Shown here piece after piece: positions 1 through 6,220 of a stretch of DNA of 6,220 nt. The stretch is taken from IMG/VR virus record IMGVR_UViG_2537562091_000003; one strand, 5' to 3'. A program made the position numbers and the translations under genes. The stretch is from a virus. Its lineage: Duplodnaviria > Heunggongvirae > Uroviricota > Caudoviricetes. Positions within the stretch are counted from its first letter, which is position 1. Each line of letters opens with the position of its first letter. The notes beneath the pieces are model-generated. The model made no database searches. It worked only from the letters and a program-made list of their open reading frames with translations, and had not been told where the DNA came from.

Positions 1-2
1 GT

Positions 3-449
3 ACAGATGAAGGCTGGCTGTATCTGGCAGTGGTCATTGACCTGTGGTCACGTGCCGTTATTGGCTGGTCAATGTCGCCACGCATGACGGCGCAACTGGC
101 CTGCGATGCCCTGCAGATGGCGCTGTGGCGGCGTAAGAGGCCCCGGAACGTTATCGTTCACACGGACCGTGGAGGCCAGTACTGTTCAGCAGATTATCAG
201 GCGCAACTGAAGCGGCATAATCTGCGTGGAAGTATGAGCGCAAAAGGTTGCTGCTACGATAATGCCTGCGTGGAAAGCTTCTTTCATTCGCTGAAAGTGG
301 AATGTATCCATGGAGAACACTTTATCAGCCGGGAAATAATGCGGGCAACGGTGTTTAATTATATCGAATGTGATTACAATCGGTGGCGGCGGCACAGTTG
401 GTGTGGCGGCCTCAGTCCGGAACAATTTGAAAACCAGAACCTCGCTTAG
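3..449 (+). CDS. insF: IS3-family transposase OrfB (DDE integrase catalytic region), C-terminal part; 5' end lies outside the window
   Basis: Frame-3 translation is open from base 3 ([24 protein letters not shown]...[14 protein letters not shown]...[15 protein letters not shown]...[14 protein letters not shown]) to TAG 447-449. It contains the second D and the E of the DDE motif in the contexts typical of IS3 OrfB. The M at 30 in the ORF track is an internal GTG (Val), not the true start. Confidence 0.88.
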
Positions 450-479
450 GCCTGTGTCCATATTACGTGGGTAGGATCA
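441..479. repeat. IS3 right terminal inverted repeat (IRR)
   Basis: Terminal about 39 bp ends in ...gtaggatca at 479, i.e. the TGATC... terminus of IS3 in reverse complement. The exact inner limit of the IR is approximate. Confidence 0.6.
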
Positions 480-602
480 ATTCACCTAAATACGAGGCAT
501 TGCTGTAGTTGAATTGCATTGCTGTATTAGCCTGACAGTGACAGAATACGATATTGACTCTGTCACTTGTGAAATGGTCAGAATGGTTAGCAGTTATGGT
601 GA

Positions 603-809
603 TCAGTCAACCACCAGGGAATAATCCTTCGTATTCTTATCGTGCTTTACTAACGCGGCCTCAATTGCCCTGAATGCTTCCAGAGACACTTGATGTTCTA
701 TACATGCAATTACAACATCCGGGTAACCCATCGAAATGGTGCTATTAAGCATAGTTTTTACACGAACCTGCTCCTGGGAGGGGGCATCAGTGTATTGATC
801 TTTATGCAT
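603..809 (-). CDS. hypothetical small protein (68 aa), function unknown
   Basis: ATG at 809-807 is preceded on the minus strand by GGAG with an 8-nt spacer (GGAGCGACAAAATG); stop TGA at 605-603. Not recognised by sequence. It sits where a prophage accessory gene would be expected, downstream of gnsB. An internal Met (MLNSTISM...) is an alternative shorter start. Confidence 0.45.
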
Positions 810-1020
810 TTTGTCGCTCCATGCGTTTGCTCTTCACTTACGGCTAAAAATATAACGTCAAATCACTCAGCATGAAAGAGTGAAAGATTCAGCGCGTTTC
901 CCTTACATAATCTGTCGTTTGTATTCTCTTCAGGCATACCGGAAAGACTAGGTATTGTCACACAACCAATACCATCGACAATCGAGATTTATACCTATTC
1001 GGTAATGTTTAAATATAACA

Positions 1021-1043
1021 AAACCCCGTAAAAACGAGGTTTA
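1021..1043 (-). terminator. possible weak intrinsic terminator downstream of gnsB
   Basis: Minus strand reads AACCTCG-tttta-CGGGGTT followed by TT: a roughly 7-bp stem with one G-U pair and a short U tract, about 60 nt after the gnsB stop. Confidence 0.3.
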
Positions 1044-1104
1044 TGGGTAATTTGTATTGTTGAATAGCATCTGATGAGAAATTGATGCTAATACTATAAA
1101 CAGA

Positions 1105-1278
1105 CTAGATTAAATCAATCTTGATATCATAGCTTTCAAGACCAGTCATTTTTTCCCGTGCAGTAAACTGGATACTGGTAACTTCTTTCCCGGTCTTTTT
1201 CTTAAGCTCAATGATTTTTTTTGTTATATATTCAGAAATATCTGCTTCTGTTTTTGTTTTTAACTCTTCAATGTTCAT
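1105..1278 (-). CDS. gnsB: GnsA/GnsB-family small protein (57 aa)
   Basis: Translation MNIEELKTKTEADISEYITKKIIELKKKTGKEVTSIQFTAREKMTGLESYDIKIDLI matches the length and the conserved FTAREKMTGLESYD motif of GnsA/GnsB as recalled. SD AGAGGA sits 5 nt before the ATG at 1278 (the second of two adjacent ATGs). The track ORF extending to 1371 is an unsupported N-terminal extension. Gene order gnsB-ynfN-cspI matches the Qin prophage of E. coli K-12. Confidence 0.8.
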   Translation of the reverse strand: MNIEELKTKTEADISEYITKKIIELKKKTGKEVTSIQFTAREKMTGLESYDIKIDLI

Positions 1279-1450
1279 CATTTCCTCTTTTAGTCTGTTA
1301 TGACTTTCCTGGTACACAGTAGTGTCAATTATATGGAGCAAACGTATAAAAGATAAGATGAAACATCGCAATAATCAACATACGACGGTCTAAATTTCAC
1401 ACAAACAGATAAAGATGATTATCATTTATTATCAATGCATTAGAATCAAA

Positions 1451-1606
1451 TCAATTCAAGAGTCTCATTGCTGCTTCCAGAATTTCTTCTGAAGTTACAT
1501 GTCGATCCGCTGCTACATAAATGACTTTATGATCTCCGGTCAGAGATGGAAACCCTGCAGCCATTACAGTGAGGTGTGTTGTTTCGCCATTTGGATATTC
1601 ACGCAT
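1451..1606 (-). CDS. ynfN: YnfN-like small cold-shock-associated prophage protein (51 aa)
   Basis: 51-codon ORF MREYPNGETTHLTVMAAGFPSLTGDHKVIYVAADRHVTSEEILEAAMRLLN lying between gnsB and cspI, as ynfN does in Qin. Start chosen at the internal ATG 1606-1604; GGAG lies 11 nt upstream, which is suboptimal. Alternative starts at 1627 or 1642 would give 58 or 63 aa. Assignment is by size and position, not verbatim sequence recall. Confidence 0.55.
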   Translation of the reverse strand: MREYPNGETTHLTVMAAGFPSLTGDHKVIYVAADRHVTSEEILEAAMRLLN

Positions 1607-1722
1607 GATGGTGTTAACTCCGGTCATCACTGGCACTACCATTGCTGGTTCAGAGTTAAAAAAAACTATTATTTTTTCATAATGTTACCGTAATATGTGA
1701 GTATCCATCGACTAGACACTAA

Positions 1723-1746
1723 GCAAAAAAGCTCCCGAAGGAGCCT
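1723..1746 (-). terminator. intrinsic terminator downstream of cspI
   Basis: Minus strand: GCTCC-UUCG-GGAGC (GC-rich 5-bp stem with a UUCG tetraloop; + strand 1731-1744) followed immediately by UUUUUU (complement of the A run 1725-1730). About 200 nt downstream of the cspI stop. Confidence 0.45.
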
Positions 1747-1951
1747 TCATTTTCACTTTCTTAAATCTAACGACAGACGGCTAACATTTAAGTATTGTGA
1801 AATATTATCAAATGTAATCATCATTGATTTACAAAAGATACATTTTGCCCCGAAAGGATTCCTGTCAGAAACATCAAAAGATGATGTTCTATACTGAGAA
1901 CCATGGCAACACGGGCATCTAAAGTGAATATGGTTTGTAATATTTTCTACC

Positions 1952-2164
1952 TCAAAGTGCCACAACATGAACAGCCGCGGGGCCTTTAGGTCCGTTCTCA
2001 ATACCAAATTCGACTTCCTGATTCTCAGTTAACGTTTTGAAATCGTTGCTCTGAATAGCTGAGAAATGGACAAACACATCTTTGCTACCATCTTTCGGCG
2101 TGATGAAACCAAAACCTTTTTCAGGGTTAAACCATTTCACTAAACCAGTCATTTTGTTAGACAT
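1952..2164 (-). CDS. cspI: cold-shock protein, CspA family (CspI-like), 70 aa
   Basis: Translation [70 protein letters not shown] carries the RNP1 (KGFGFI) and RNP2 (VFVHF) motifs of the cold-shock domain and matches CspI as recalled. SD AAGG precedes tandem ATG ATG; the second ATG (2164) gives the canonical MSNKM N-terminus. Confidence 0.92.
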
Positions 2165-2344
2165 CATTATTACCTTTTGAAGAAGTTAGCCCTTGGGCAG
2201 AATGGTCCGAAAAAAAATATCAGAGAGAAAAACCAACAAGGAAATCTCAAGAGGTACAAATAATAAAATTATAACAATGACTGCTTCAGATAATTTTGTA
2301 ACAAACCAGAACACCATTAACGCATGATTAACCAACCATAGCAA
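2165..2344 (-). promoter_or_regulatory. cspI promoter and long 5' untranslated leader (cspA-type)
   Basis: Minus strand has -35 TTGCTA (+ coords 2344-2339), a 17-bp spacer and -10 GTTAAT (2321-2316), in an arrangement resembling the cspA promoter (TTGCAT-17-CTTAAT). The predicted leader is about 145 nt. Just upstream of the SD the leader contains GCCCAAGGGC...AAAGGTAATA, parallel to cspA GCCGAAAGGC...AAAGGTAATA. An AT-rich UP-like region lies upstream (2345-2460). Confidence 0.5.
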
Positions 2345-2527
2345 GGATTACTTTTGTAAAGAAAAACACACGAATGAAACAATAGCTTTATTTATTAATA
2401 AAACGTGTCATTCTGTCTAATGACCTTTTATCTTACCCTTAAAATTTCAAGGATTTTGACTCATGGAAGAGTCCTTTTTATTTAAATTTCACATTCAGCG
2501 CTAAAAATAATCCGATTTAATATTAAT

Positions 2528-3555
<1,028 letters not shown>

Positions 3556-3668
3556 GGATATTTATCAGGATTTATCGGCTTCAAATCCCCGGATATGTTA
3601 AATCTTACCTCATCAGTGATGGGCACTGGCGGGAGGAGGATGTCAATCTGATAAACACAGAGGCGACT

Positions 3669-3929
3669 ATGGATTACACAAATCTACCAAAACAAACTTT
3701 TGCTGATTTAATCGCACTCAGGCAAGCAGTCGTAGCTCTAATCAACTTGTTGCCGGAGAAGGAAAAGGAATTAGTTAAAGCGCTTCTTAACAGAACTGCC
3801 GCCGATTTTTCATCATATCCACTGACAGATGACCTTGCGGACCTTCCTGAATTAATTGCAGCGTCCGCCAATAAGCTTACTGAAGAGATTTACCCTCCTC
3901 AAAAATCTTCACAAAATTCCTGCGAGTAA
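3669..3929 (+). CDS. hypothetical acidic small protein (86 aa), convergent to the lysis operon
   Basis: ATG 3669 is preceded by AGAGG with a 5-nt spacer. The product (MDYTNLPKQTFADLIALRQAVVALINLLPEKEKELVKALLNRTAADF...) looks like a real helical protein, not low-complexity. It occupies an otherwise unexplained 321-bp gap between the 183-aa gene and the lysozyme. Its 3' end overlaps the 3' end of the 183-aa gene by 53 bp. The competing minus-strand ORF 3674-3871 is Ser/Ala/Arg-rich and looks like an antisense artefact. Confidence 0.4.
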   Translation: MDYTNLPKQTFADLIALRQAVVALINLLPEKEKELVKALLNRTAADFSSYPLTDDLADLPELIAASANKLTEEIYPPQKSSQNSCE

Positions 3930-4428
3930 CTTCAATGCAATAATCGTAAAACGCCGCAAACTGCTCATCGCGGCGTTTTTTTTCATCTTCAGAAGGAATC
4001 AGCACCGACAATTTTTTATTCAGATCAGCGACGCTGCCCTCCAGTTTTTCAATGGGCGATTCAATATCATCTTTTTCTGACCGCAATGCCGTCGGTGGCG
4101 TCTTCAGAGAACCAGTAATTCTTCCCGGTAGCTTTCCTTTGTAGGTTATCCACACATTCTGCGCCTCTAAAATTATGGGGCGCTTTTCCGGCGACTGCTC
4201 ATCCCCTTCACATAACCCGGCAGCAACATCCAGGAAGACCTGTCTGATGCTCCTTCTGGCTGCTGCCTCATAAAACTCCAGCGCAGCTCCTTCAACACGG
4301 TCCATGGCGACATCCAGGCCAAAAATTTCACCGTCAAAGCGTTCTTTGTCCTGTAAGGCTACAGTTACCGTAACTTTATTCTCAAAATTACGGACTCCTT
4401 TCACAACCAGTTCATAGTCTTGAGTCAT
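3877..4428 (-). CDS. uncharacterised phage protein (183 aa) in the holin-endolysin slot; possibly a DUF1327/YdfR-type protein
   Basis: ATG 4428 lies 4 nt after the holin stop, with GAGGAGAG overlapping the end of the holin gene, indicating translational coupling. No transmembrane segment or catalytic motif was recognised. In Qin of E. coli K-12 the gene between essQ and rrrQ is ydfR; the family assignment is by position and vague recall only. Confidence 0.8.
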   Translation of the reverse strand: MTQDYELVVKGVRNFENKVTVTVALQDKERFDGEIFGLDVAMDRVEGAALEFYEAAARRSIRQVFLDVAAGLCEGDEQSPEKRPIILEAQNVWITYKGKLPGRITGSLKTPPTALRSEKDDIESPIEKLEGSVADLNKKLSVLIPSEDEKKRRDEQFAAFYDYCIEVTRRNFVKIFEEGKSLQ

Positions 4429-4432
4429 TGGA

Positions 4433-4648
4433 TTACTCTCCTCTCGCAGCCTTACGCCTGTCTTCTTTAATCTTGAAATAAAGATTTGTCAGATACGTCA
4501 GCATGCCAAATACCAGACTACCCAATACACCTATTGCCGCCCACTGTGAGGGCGTGACTTTATCGAGCAACTGTAAAAACCAGTAGCCAGCACTGCCTGC
4601 AGAGGTGCTGTAGGCGATGCCCGTTGTTAACTTATCCATGGATTTCAT
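4433..4648 (-). CDS. class II holin, phage 21 S-type pinholin with dual-start motif (71/68 aa)
   Basis: Translation [71 protein letters not shown] is near-identical to phage 21 S (S21-71) as recalled. Two in-frame ATGs (M1 and M4: MKSM) form the antiholin/holin dual-start. SD GGAGGTGAGG lies upstream. The track ORF extending to 4732 is an unsupported N-terminal extension. Confidence 0.92.
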
Positions 4649-4738
4649 AGCCTCACCTCCGCAGATAACGGATGGTGTACACGGTTTGGTTCGAAGAAGG
4701 AAAGAAGTTACATTAGCGTAAGGCCCGAACATCTATTC

Positions 4739-4770
4739 AAAAAGAAAAACGCCAGCAATTATTCTGGCGT
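4739..4770 (-). terminator. rho-independent terminator downstream of the AraC-family gene
   Basis: Minus strand: ACGCCAG-(8-nt loop)-CTGGCGT, a perfect 7-bp GC-rich stem, followed directly by TTTTCTTTTT. Located about 70 nt after the regulator's stop and about 90 nt upstream of the holin start. Confidence 0.65.
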
Positions 4771-4838
4771 AGCTAAAAATATCGTATAATCTTACACTTC
4801 AAAAAATAACTTTATAAAATGCCATCACATCATATCTT

Positions 4839-5552
4839 CTAAGAAAATCTTGATAAATATTGGTGCGGAGGCACACCAAAATATCCTCTAAAAACACTTA
4901 CAAAATATGATGCATTGTCATACCCGCATATTCCCGCCACCTTGCCGACAGTATGGTTACTGTAGATCAATAATCTTTGCGCCATCATCATTCGTTCTTC
5001 AAGAATTAATTTACTAAACGATAACCCTTCGTCTTTTAATTTTCTTTTTAACAAACTCTCGCTCATATATAATCTTGAAGATATATCACAAAGTCTCCAT
5101 GACGCTGAGATATCCGAGTGAATAATAGCCTTAACTTTACAACCTAAGCTATTAAGACTTCCGAACAAAAAACTTTGCACTATTTTCTCTGAAGATAAGA
5201 CAGCAAGACATGCAAGTGATATTTGATTTCTAACTACATCCACGGTTTTGCTATCACAATTCAAGCATGCAACCAAGTTCTTTAACAATGAAAAATCTTC
5301 ACATTCTACTATCAAGTATGACGGATAAAACCTTCTTACAGAAAAAGGTGAGAGTGTGTAGTTTTTAAAGAAATCATTAACTGTTTTCTCCTCAACATCT
5401 ACGATCATTAGATGATCTGTATTTGACGAAAAAAGATCTTTTAAATTGTATTCAATGAGGACAGCATTTCCTTTTTTAAACAAAATATCTTCTTTACCAA
5501 TTCGGACACCAAACGAGTTCAACACCAAAATGATAGAACATATGTATGGCAT
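4839..5552 (-). CDS. AraC/XylS-family transcriptional regulator (AppY/EnvY/Rns-like), AT-rich moron
   Basis: C-terminal 100 aa carry the family's double helix-turn-helix signature (WRLCDISSRLYMSESLLKRKLKDEGLSFSKLILEERMMMAQRLL...GICGYDNASYFVSVFRGYFGVPPHQY), aligning by eye with AppY/EnvY. The gene is markedly more AT-rich than the flanking lysis genes. Preferred start is ATG 5552 with SD AGGTGG 5 nt upstream; the track's start at 5561 is a GTG placed too close to that SD. Confidence 0.85.
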   Translation of the reverse strand: MPYICSIILVLNSFGVRIGKEDILFKKGNAVLIEYNLKDLFSSNTDHLMIVDVEEKTVNDFFKNYTLSPFSVRRFYPSYLIVECEDFSLLKNLVACLNCDSKTVDVVRNQISLACLAVLSSEKIVQSFLFGSLNSLGCKVKAIIHSDISASWRLCDISSRLYMSESLLKRKLKDEGLSFSKLILEERMMMAQRLLIYSNHTVGKVAGICGYDNASYFVSVFRGYFGVPPHQYLSRFS

Positions 5553-5732
5553 ATTATCCACCTGATATCATTGGGGTTACACCAGGTAAGTATAGGTGGA
5601 AAATCAATATTCGCCAGTTCAACAATAAGGAAAATCTCATTGCATCACAACTATAAAACCATGTGTTTAACTCACAAAAAACAAATCATTAAACTAATCT
5701 GTTATATTATAATAGCTGCGTGCAATAATAAT

Positions 5733-5760
5733 ATTATATGCTCTTAATATTCACTTGAAA
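5733..5760 (-). promoter_or_regulatory. candidate sigma70 promoter for the AraC-family gene, abutting the IS1 terminus
   Basis: Minus strand has a perfect -10 TATAAT (+ coords 5738-5733) with a weak -35 TTTCAA (5760-5755, 16-bp spacer) only 6 bp from the IS1 end. The region is very AT-rich, so several alternative -10-like hexamers exist, e.g. TATTATAAT about 25 bp downstream. Confidence 0.3.
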
Positions 5761-5765
5761 TATCG

Positions 5766-6220
5766 GTAATGACTCCAACTTATTGATAGTGTTTTATGTT
5801 CAGATAATGCCCGATGACTTTGTCATGCAGCTCCACCGATTTTGAGAACGACAGCGACTTCCGTCCCAGCCGTGCCAGGTGCTGCCTCAGATTCAGGTTA
5901 TGCCGCTCAATTCGCTGCGTATATCGCTTGCTGATTACGTGCAGCTTTCCCTTCAGGCGGGATTCATACAGCGGCCAGCCATCCGTCATCCATATCACCA
6001 CGTCAAAGGGTGACAGCAGGCTCATAAGACGCCCCAGCGTCGCCATAGTGCGTTCACCGAATACGTGCGCAACAACCGTCTTCCGTAGCCTGTCATACGC
6101 GTAAAACAGCCAGCGCTGGCGCGATTTAGCCCCGACATAGCCCCACTGTTCGTCCATTTCCGCGCAGACGATGACGTCACTGCCCGGCTGTATGCGCGAG
6201 GTTACCGACTGCGGCCTGAG
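5766..6220 (-). mobile_element. IS1 insertion sequence, insB-proximal end with terminal inverted repeat; element continues beyond the window end
   Basis: 5766-5788 ggtaatgactccaacttattgat is the IS1 terminal inverted repeat; the InsB reading frame follows on the minus strand and is still open at 6220. The A6C frameshift site and insA would lie just outside the window. Confidence 0.92.
5780..6220 (-). CDS. insB: IS1 transposase InsB reading frame (part of the InsAB' fusion transposase), 5' partial
   Basis: Minus-strand frame reads [146 protein letters not shown], recognised as IS1 InsB. Stop TAA at 5782-5780; the frame is open to the window edge. Confidence 0.92.

Follow-up and report, generated by a model that had tools for sequence, protein, structure and literature searches.

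The window analysed here, a stretch of 6,220 nt, ends inside a copy of IS1 that begins 212 bp upstream of the ATG of a regulator gene, and the locus raises the question of whether this IS1 is an insertion acting on the regulator or the mark of a larger rearrangement. The minus strand of the window is the late region of a Qin-type lambdoid prophage of E. coli. Read from high to low coordinates, it carries IS1, the regulator gene, a hairpin, the holin gene, a disrupted ydfR, rrrQ, rzpQ, cspI, ynfQ, ynfN, gnsB, a small open reading frame (ORF) and IS3. Over bases 1-5764, the window shares 99.9% identity with E. coli B REL606 and relatives. It departs from REL606 by four substitutions and a single 1-bp deletion, all outside 4400-5764. 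Homology to IS1-free relatives such as REL606 breaks off exactly at 5764, so that IS1 starts at 5765. The sequence-only reading was right that the IS1 is real, with its terminus placed one base off at 5766, and its figure of about 210 bp for the distance to the regulator agrees with our 212 bp to the ATG at 5552 (203 bp to an upstream in-frame GTG at 5561).

The window corresponds to one contig of the draft scaffold GL872249.1 (GCA_000191015.1) and matches positions 4806-11025 of locus L016 with 100% identity. Its IS1 portion (5765..6220, minus strand) comprises the right-inverted-repeat end and 456 of the 768 bp of an IS1A-type element, and all 456 bases agree with IS1A-family copies from many E. 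coli genomes (100% identity), with a median of about 11 matching places per genome. The 23-bp right terminal inverted repeat, GGTAATGACTCCAACTTATTGAT, occupies 5765-5787 (no strand assigned; L016 5239-5261), and the left inverted repeat, GGTGATGCTGCCAACTTACTGAT, lies at L016 4051-4073, giving terminal repeats of about 23 bp at both ends. A 125-aa ORF at 5780..6157 (minus strand) is the C-terminal part of the insB reading frame and matches the IS1 transposase model NF033558 (E 4.4e-37; 127.9 bits, cut-off 100); a 91-aa InsA ORF in L016 matches PF03811 and PF12759.

The window stops at a scaffold gap inside IS1, where Ns fill L016 4424-4805. The contig across this gap holds 373 bp of IS1 counted from the left repeat, and 61 identical bases overlap the window end; the assigned gap size of 382 Ns is wrong. 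Merging the two contig ends over the scaffold gap, on which the length rests, gives an IS1 of 373 + 456 - 61 = 768 bp from the left repeat (L016 4051) to the right repeat (5261). Beyond the left repeat, the scaffold continues with a 5′-truncated Qin integrase and then rspB, rspA and ynfA, a side that is collinear with the Qin end in REL606 and represents the Qin host boundary. The nine bases on each side of IS1, ACTGTTTTG and GATATTTCA, are not a 9-bp target duplication; by contrast, a perfect 9-bp duplication flanks each of five simple IS1 insertions known at the locus from other strains. The sequence-only reading had taken the element for a simple insertion and suggested looking beyond it for the Q antiterminator gene and for a target-site duplication. 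What adjoins IS1 there is an integrase remnant followed by host genes, with Q missing and no duplication, which contradicts a simple insertion and fits the larger rearrangement junction that it had named as an alternative, though the rearrangement lies within the prophage.

At the scaffold level, the two flanks of IS1 map to REL606 positions 1614460 and 1628802 in the same orientation, and the REL606 interval between the joints (1614461-1628801) measures 14,341 bp. On the regulator side, the missing DNA comprises the distal 194 bp of the spacer upstream of the regulator, a YbgA-like gene (interrupted by IS3 in REL606), a lipocalin gene and the Q antiterminator gene. Further on, it includes a DUF968 remnant, rem, hokD, queH, replication genes and cro/cI-like (immunity) genes and, towards the integrase, dicB, ydfD, an exonuclease gene, xis and the first ~178 nt of int. 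A single IS1 without a duplication between collinear but distant sequences is the signature of an adjacent deletion or of recombination between two IS1 copies. The absence of a 9-bp duplication together with the collinear, distant flanks therefore places IS1 at a deletion joint, and we put the probability at about 80% that it is the collinear joint of a deletion that removed some 14.3 kb from a decayed Qin-type prophage of E. coli.

The joint is known from one draft assembly, in which the link through IS1 is a scaffold join across a multicopy repeat with no spanning read or contig seen, and a wrong join would restore a simple insertion. The YbgA-like gene, the lipocalin gene, Q and the rest of the prophage would then lie beyond IS1, beginning with a 9-bp duplication of TGAAATATC and continuing with TTCATATAAAAACAG..., that is, the remaining spacer and the YbgA-like gene. 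The multicopy nature of IS1 and the end of the window at an N gap inside the element leave room for such an error, and simple insertions with duplications are known in the regulator spacer of ET650, AMSCJX03 and 19M19. However, what the scaffold places across the gap is the integrase end of this prophage, in collinear orientation, and through the identical overlap it brings IS1 to precisely 768 bp, a combination that a chance misjoin among many IS1 ends would rarely give, and mate pairs from the unique flank would be expected to link to a YbgA-like side had one existed. A simple insertion is thus quite unlikely. The junction of IS1 with the regulator flank has no identical copy among 5,426 complete E. 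coli genomes or species-representative genomes. The integrase-to-IS1 junction is likewise absent from the 5,426 complete genomes, where the nearest junctions lie 1 and 3 bp off and derive from other deletions.

The likeliest origin of the deletion joint would be an IS1-mediated adjacent deletion, in which intramolecular transposition proceeded from an IS1 that already lay at one or other junction; the alternative route would be homologous recombination between two copies of IS1. Both routes would leave one IS1 and no target duplication, and the order of events, like the choice between transposition and IS1 x IS1 recombination, does not appear separable from the sequence. Deletions in other strains support an IS1-driven process. 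In JX21CE8 and 23CRST027, the IS1 left-repeat junction lies 1 bp further into the integrase and the deletion extends to dicB. In strain a7, the junction in the integrase is 3 bp away and the deletion reaches ydfK, removing nearly the whole prophage, and MLI104K1 carries a separate IS1-bounded deletion in the regulator spacer, beginning 379 bp ahead of the gene. Known IS1 deletion cases include the classic gal-region deletions and the IS-bounded deletions in E. coli B evolution lines. The present locus resembles IS1-mediated adjacent deletions in having a single IS1 at the joint, no target duplication and collinear flanks and, across the other strains, in the nested deletions of unequal length that start from nearly one point. 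It differs in that neither junction is common to another genome, so that a ‘fixed’ end is not identifiable.

The integrase junctions form a pattern of their own. Three independent IS1 left-repeat junctions fall no more than 3 bp apart in the Qin integrase (L016 4042-4053; L019 about 4250; L020 about 4253), after ...CTGTTTTG, ...TTTTGC and ...TTTTGCAT, and their far end points differ, lying in the regulator spacer, in dicB and in ydfK. This integrase site resembles a hot spot for IS1 targeting from which prophage deletions have repeatedly arisen.

What the deletion removed can be read from relatives that lack IS1 here. Ten IS-free contigs with an identical regulator share one gene order: DUF968, Q (125 aa), lipocalin on the opposite strand, the YbgA-like gene (319 aa), the 406-bp spacer, the regulator, holin, YdfR, lysozyme and Rz. 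The viable phage IdasGreatGrand (47.9 kb) has the same layout with a regulator that is 86% identical; in its L028 1940-6568, genes of lipocalin size and YbgA-like size and the regulator gene lie between Q and holin with matching sizes and order. The same cassette also occurs in DLP12-type prophages, and in about a dozen records of lambda-derived phages a regulator gene with 77% identity lies close to the right genome end. In the IS1-free relatives and in IdasGreatGrand, Q ends ~2.2 kb upstream of the regulator, with the lipocalin and YbgA-like genes between them. A terminator-like hairpin lies ~100 bp downstream of Q (L003 3861-3884), and by analogy with lambda the late promoter pR' and the terminator tR' would be expected at this hairpin, just downstream of Q. 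The site of IS1, which had been proposed as the place where Q and the late promoter should sit, is instead the cargo region of the prophage.

In lambdoid phages, the interval between Q and the lysis genes is a moron (cargo) slot, the position that stx holds in Stx phages. In Qin-type and DLP12-type prophages, as in IdasGreatGrand, the slot is filled by the lipocalin, YbgA-like and regulator genes; unlike the usual arrangement, the regulator here has an apparent terminator and a promoter-like site of its own, and in the source genome there is no upstream late promoter. A known parallel is nmpC::IS5 in the DLP12 prophage of K-12, where an IS also lies in the cargo region between quuD (Q) and the essD holin of a cryptic lambdoid prophage. 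There, however, a cargo gene was interrupted and Q was kept, whereas here Q and everything upstream of it are missing.

Downstream of the regulator, the lysis genes stand in lambdoid order as holin, endolysin and Rz (PF04971, PF00959, PF10721). The first lysis gene (4433..4648, minus strand) encodes a holin of the phage 21 S family, essD/essQ type (PF04971, 6.1e-34; 216 nt as essD in RefSeq). It is followed by the lysozyme RrrQ (3022..3555, minus strand; PF00959 and annotation) and the Rz-like protein RzpQ (2528..3025, minus strand; DUF2514, PF10721). This RzpQ is a strain-specific variant that differs from the REL606 protein; exact matches to it lie in three contigs, one of them the 2.49-Mb GL872249.1. 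Q and the late promoter are missing between IS1 and the integrase in L016, which bears out the proposal that the lysis cassette is uncoupled from late transcription: at the scaffold level, the lysis genes are permanently severed from Q-dependent late transcription, and the remnant, with int truncated and xis gone, is unable to excise. The further idea that IS1 locked the prophage in does not hold, because the prophage was already defective through the IS3-bounded loss of structural genes and the disruption of ydfR.

The remainder of the window bears other traces of decay and strain variation. The disrupted ydfR region (3669-4428) contains an ORF at 3877-4428 of 183 aa with DUF1327 only in its first 112 residues (103-104 aa in relatives), and an 86-aa ORF without a family match lies on the opposite strand at 3669-3929, between ydfR and the lysozyme gene, two genes that overlap or adjoin in relatives; RefSeq lists ydfR as a pseudogene in REL606. 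Compared with REL606, a T run at 1671 has lost 1 bp where ynfN begins, and the longest ORF there is 63 aa (1451-1642), not the 76-aa YnfN. The other repeat-bounded contig end is an IS3 end (1..479, plus strand), placed by sequence comparison, and the far side of this junction holds a truncated tail-tip gene in REL606 but a DUF1441 (small-terminase-like) gene in the source scaffold; differing between strains, it may be another rearrangement joint. A cspA-type RNA thermoregulator (Rfam RF01766, 109.8 bits) at 1906-2322 (minus strand) covers the leader and start of the cold-shock gene cspI. The Rfam scan returned nothing for 5553-6220 and, in the window, this thermoregulator upstream of cspI alone.

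The regulator gene that IS1 faces (4839..5552, minus strand) is intact and encodes a 237-aa protein of the AraC/XylS family (WP_001146314.1), recognized by Pfam HTH_18. Its ATG at 5552 coincides with the RefSeq start and follows a Shine-Dalgarno-like GGTGGA motif. The C terminus carries a double helix-turn-helix of AraC type, with HTH_18 (3.1e-16, 59.9 bits) and HTH_AraC (42.6 bits) both above cut-off. Over its full length, the protein is 30% identical to AppY (4e-42) and 29% identical to YdeO (2e-33), and it scores 112.3 bits against the YdeO equivalog model, below the cut-off of 348; judged by sequence similarity, it is a relative of YdeO and AppY and not an orthologue. Annotation sources name it only ‘helix-turn-helix domain-containing protein’, its accession appeared in no paper, and a literature search for Qin prophage with AraC gave nothing relevant. 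AraC/XylS regulators of acid resistance encoded on prophages or islands include AppY (of DLP12), YdeO and the E. coli O157:H7 proteins PsrA, PsrB and PatE (PMC10057817, PMC10877973). The present regulator resembles this group in its size, AT-rich gene and prophage location, with the sequence comparison covering AppY and YdeO.

The regulator gene has a G+C content of 33% (0.30-0.36 across the gene). Between it and the holin gene, the terminator scan reported an intrinsic-terminator-like hairpin followed by a T run (4749..4770, minus strand), pointing to the regulator as a separate transcription unit. In the intact phage, late transcripts made by Q-modified polymerase would have needed to read through this hairpin. 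Retaining the conserved proximal spacer and its own terminator, the regulator is most probably an autonomous unit and one that is probably repressed by H-NS.

The retained spacer (5553..5764, minus strand) is the proximal 212 bp of 406 bp and, by alignment, is identical to that of IS1-free relatives. Its G+C content is 27-34%, with a value of 0.27 at 5601-5800, as expected from the earlier description of the region as AT-rich. A TATAAT in native sequence lies at 5733..5738 (minus strand), 27-32 bp from the IS end; at its -35 position, with a 17-bp spacing, stands ATTTCA (5761-5756), which matches TTGACA at three of six bases. This weak pairing, put forward earlier as a candidate promoter, is indeed present, but it is no better than chance as a promoter: the consensus promoter scan did not report the pair, the window holds 8 TATAAT motifs against 5.67 +/- 2.23 expected (40 of 200 shuffles reach 8), and 4700-6220 contains 6 promoter-like sites against 4.4 +/- 2.0 in shuffles. 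The only scan-reported promoter-like site on the regulator strand in the retained spacer is TTGTGA-16-TATAGT (9/12; 5650..5677, minus strand), located in a segment common to both spacer alleles. The best-scoring site in the spacer, TTTACA-16-TATGAT (10/12; L003 5642-5669), is conserved in both alleles and was deleted here, as it lies upstream of the joint. The two alleles differ by a 54-bp segment that is found in Qin/REL606-type loci and missing from DLP12-type loci; by alignment it corresponds approximately to window 5711-5764 (about L003 5759-5812) and holds both the -35 of the TATAAT and the IS1 joint. A hybrid promoter between IS1 and its flank was considered and rejected, as no minus-strand site across 5765 reaches the scan threshold; judged by eye, the TTGGAG of the right repeat would have AAGTGA or TCAAGT as its partner.

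Whether the joint also changed expression of the regulator is a separate matter, and activation by IS1 is compatible with a deletion joint; both can hold. In the bgl operon, activated by upstream IS1 or IS5 (PMC11043490, PMC9678765), insertions in either orientation up to ~200 bp upstream of the promoter relieve repression by H-NS (PMC11043490), and expression of AppY depends on H-NS among other regulators (PMC10057817). By analogy, GC-rich IS1 sequence replacing the AT-rich DNA upstream of -212 could disrupt H-NS silencing, or admit weak read-through from the transposase, and raise expression of the regulator. This is a reasonable analogy, resting on the bgl precedent and by the H-NS dependence of AppY, a related prophage regulator, although we consider such activation unlikely on balance. 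The G+C content (30-33% for the spacer, 33% for the gene) is of the right kind, and insAB' is read in the same direction as the regulator, with no terminator-like site between the two in the scan. The same spacer has, moreover, received five independent IS1 events, 191-401 bp away from the ATG and in either orientation. AMSCJX03 (191 bp) and 19M19 (401 bp) have the left repeat nearest the regulator and a target duplication, ET650 (about 239 bp) has the right repeat nearest and a duplication, and the source strain (212 bp) and MLI104K1 (379 bp) have the right repeat nearest and no duplication. An apparent orientation bias, with all three same-strand matches right-repeat-first, was a search artefact: a chimeric query with the other IS1 end found two opposite insertions. 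In ET650 (L013 3470-4236, 5210-5977), a homologous regulator in a DLP12-type prophage at bioA-ybhB lies between two inverted IS1-family copies, an upstream one with a 9-bp duplication and a downstream one at a deletion that removed the lysis genes, so that the arrangement resembles a composite transposon.

IS1 prefers AT-rich targets, and recurrent insertion in this spacer is therefore expected without selection, from target preference alone. IS1 also interrupts the regulator gene in NCTC11023 and the YbgA-like gene in MINF_9A. The searches reached ~120 bp into the regulator gene and gave counts of 4-5 for the spacer against 1 for the gene, which do not amount to a valid enrichment test. Also against activation, the IS1 promoter is weak (PMC11043490), and a hybrid promoter over the junction scores below the scan threshold. 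The likeness to bgl extends to an IS1 ~200 bp upstream, in an AT-rich region, of a horizontally acquired and probably H-NS-bound gene, with both orientations among strains; the present event differs in being a 14-kb deletion, not an insertion. Compared with bgl-type activation, in which the IS lies upstream of the promoter in AT-rich DNA, the region here is AT-rich, but of the promoter candidates one is retained and a better-scoring one deleted. The opposite outcome must also be weighed: with the better-scoring distal site gone, lower expression of the regulator is as plausible as higher. If the main promoter lay in the deleted distal spacer, transcription would be reduced or abolished, a doubtful prospect in our estimation, suggested by the 10/12 site upstream of the joint in both alleles. 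However, consensus matches of this kind number 9 against 7.6 +/- 2.6 in shuffles, the site would give a 5′ leader of >300 nt and has a terminator-like hairpin immediately after it, and the proximal ~190 bp, downstream of the 54-bp segment, is the better-conserved half of the spacer, with its own promoter-like site. A stronger proposal, that the 406-bp spacer is a natural ‘IS switch’ in which repeated IS1 events were selected for relieving H-NS silencing, seems very unlikely. Were it true, the regulator would be turned on and would rewire host stress or acid-resistance genes, making the locus a wild-strain counterpart of bgl activation.

Taken as a deletion joint, the IS1 feature is ordinary decay of a cryptic prophage. 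It provides an example of an IS that erodes such a prophage yet spares cargo: one IS1 event took Q, immunity, replication and excision functions and left an intact regulator and the lysis cassette. It also cautions that an IS end at a contig edge is not to be read as a simple insertion. The wider interest is limited to the AppY/YdeO-like regulator, which Qin-type and DLP12-type prophages and a viable phage carry as standard cargo, and whose spacer has been repeatedly struck by IS1; if these spacer insertions changed expression of the regulator, the host regulon would alter.
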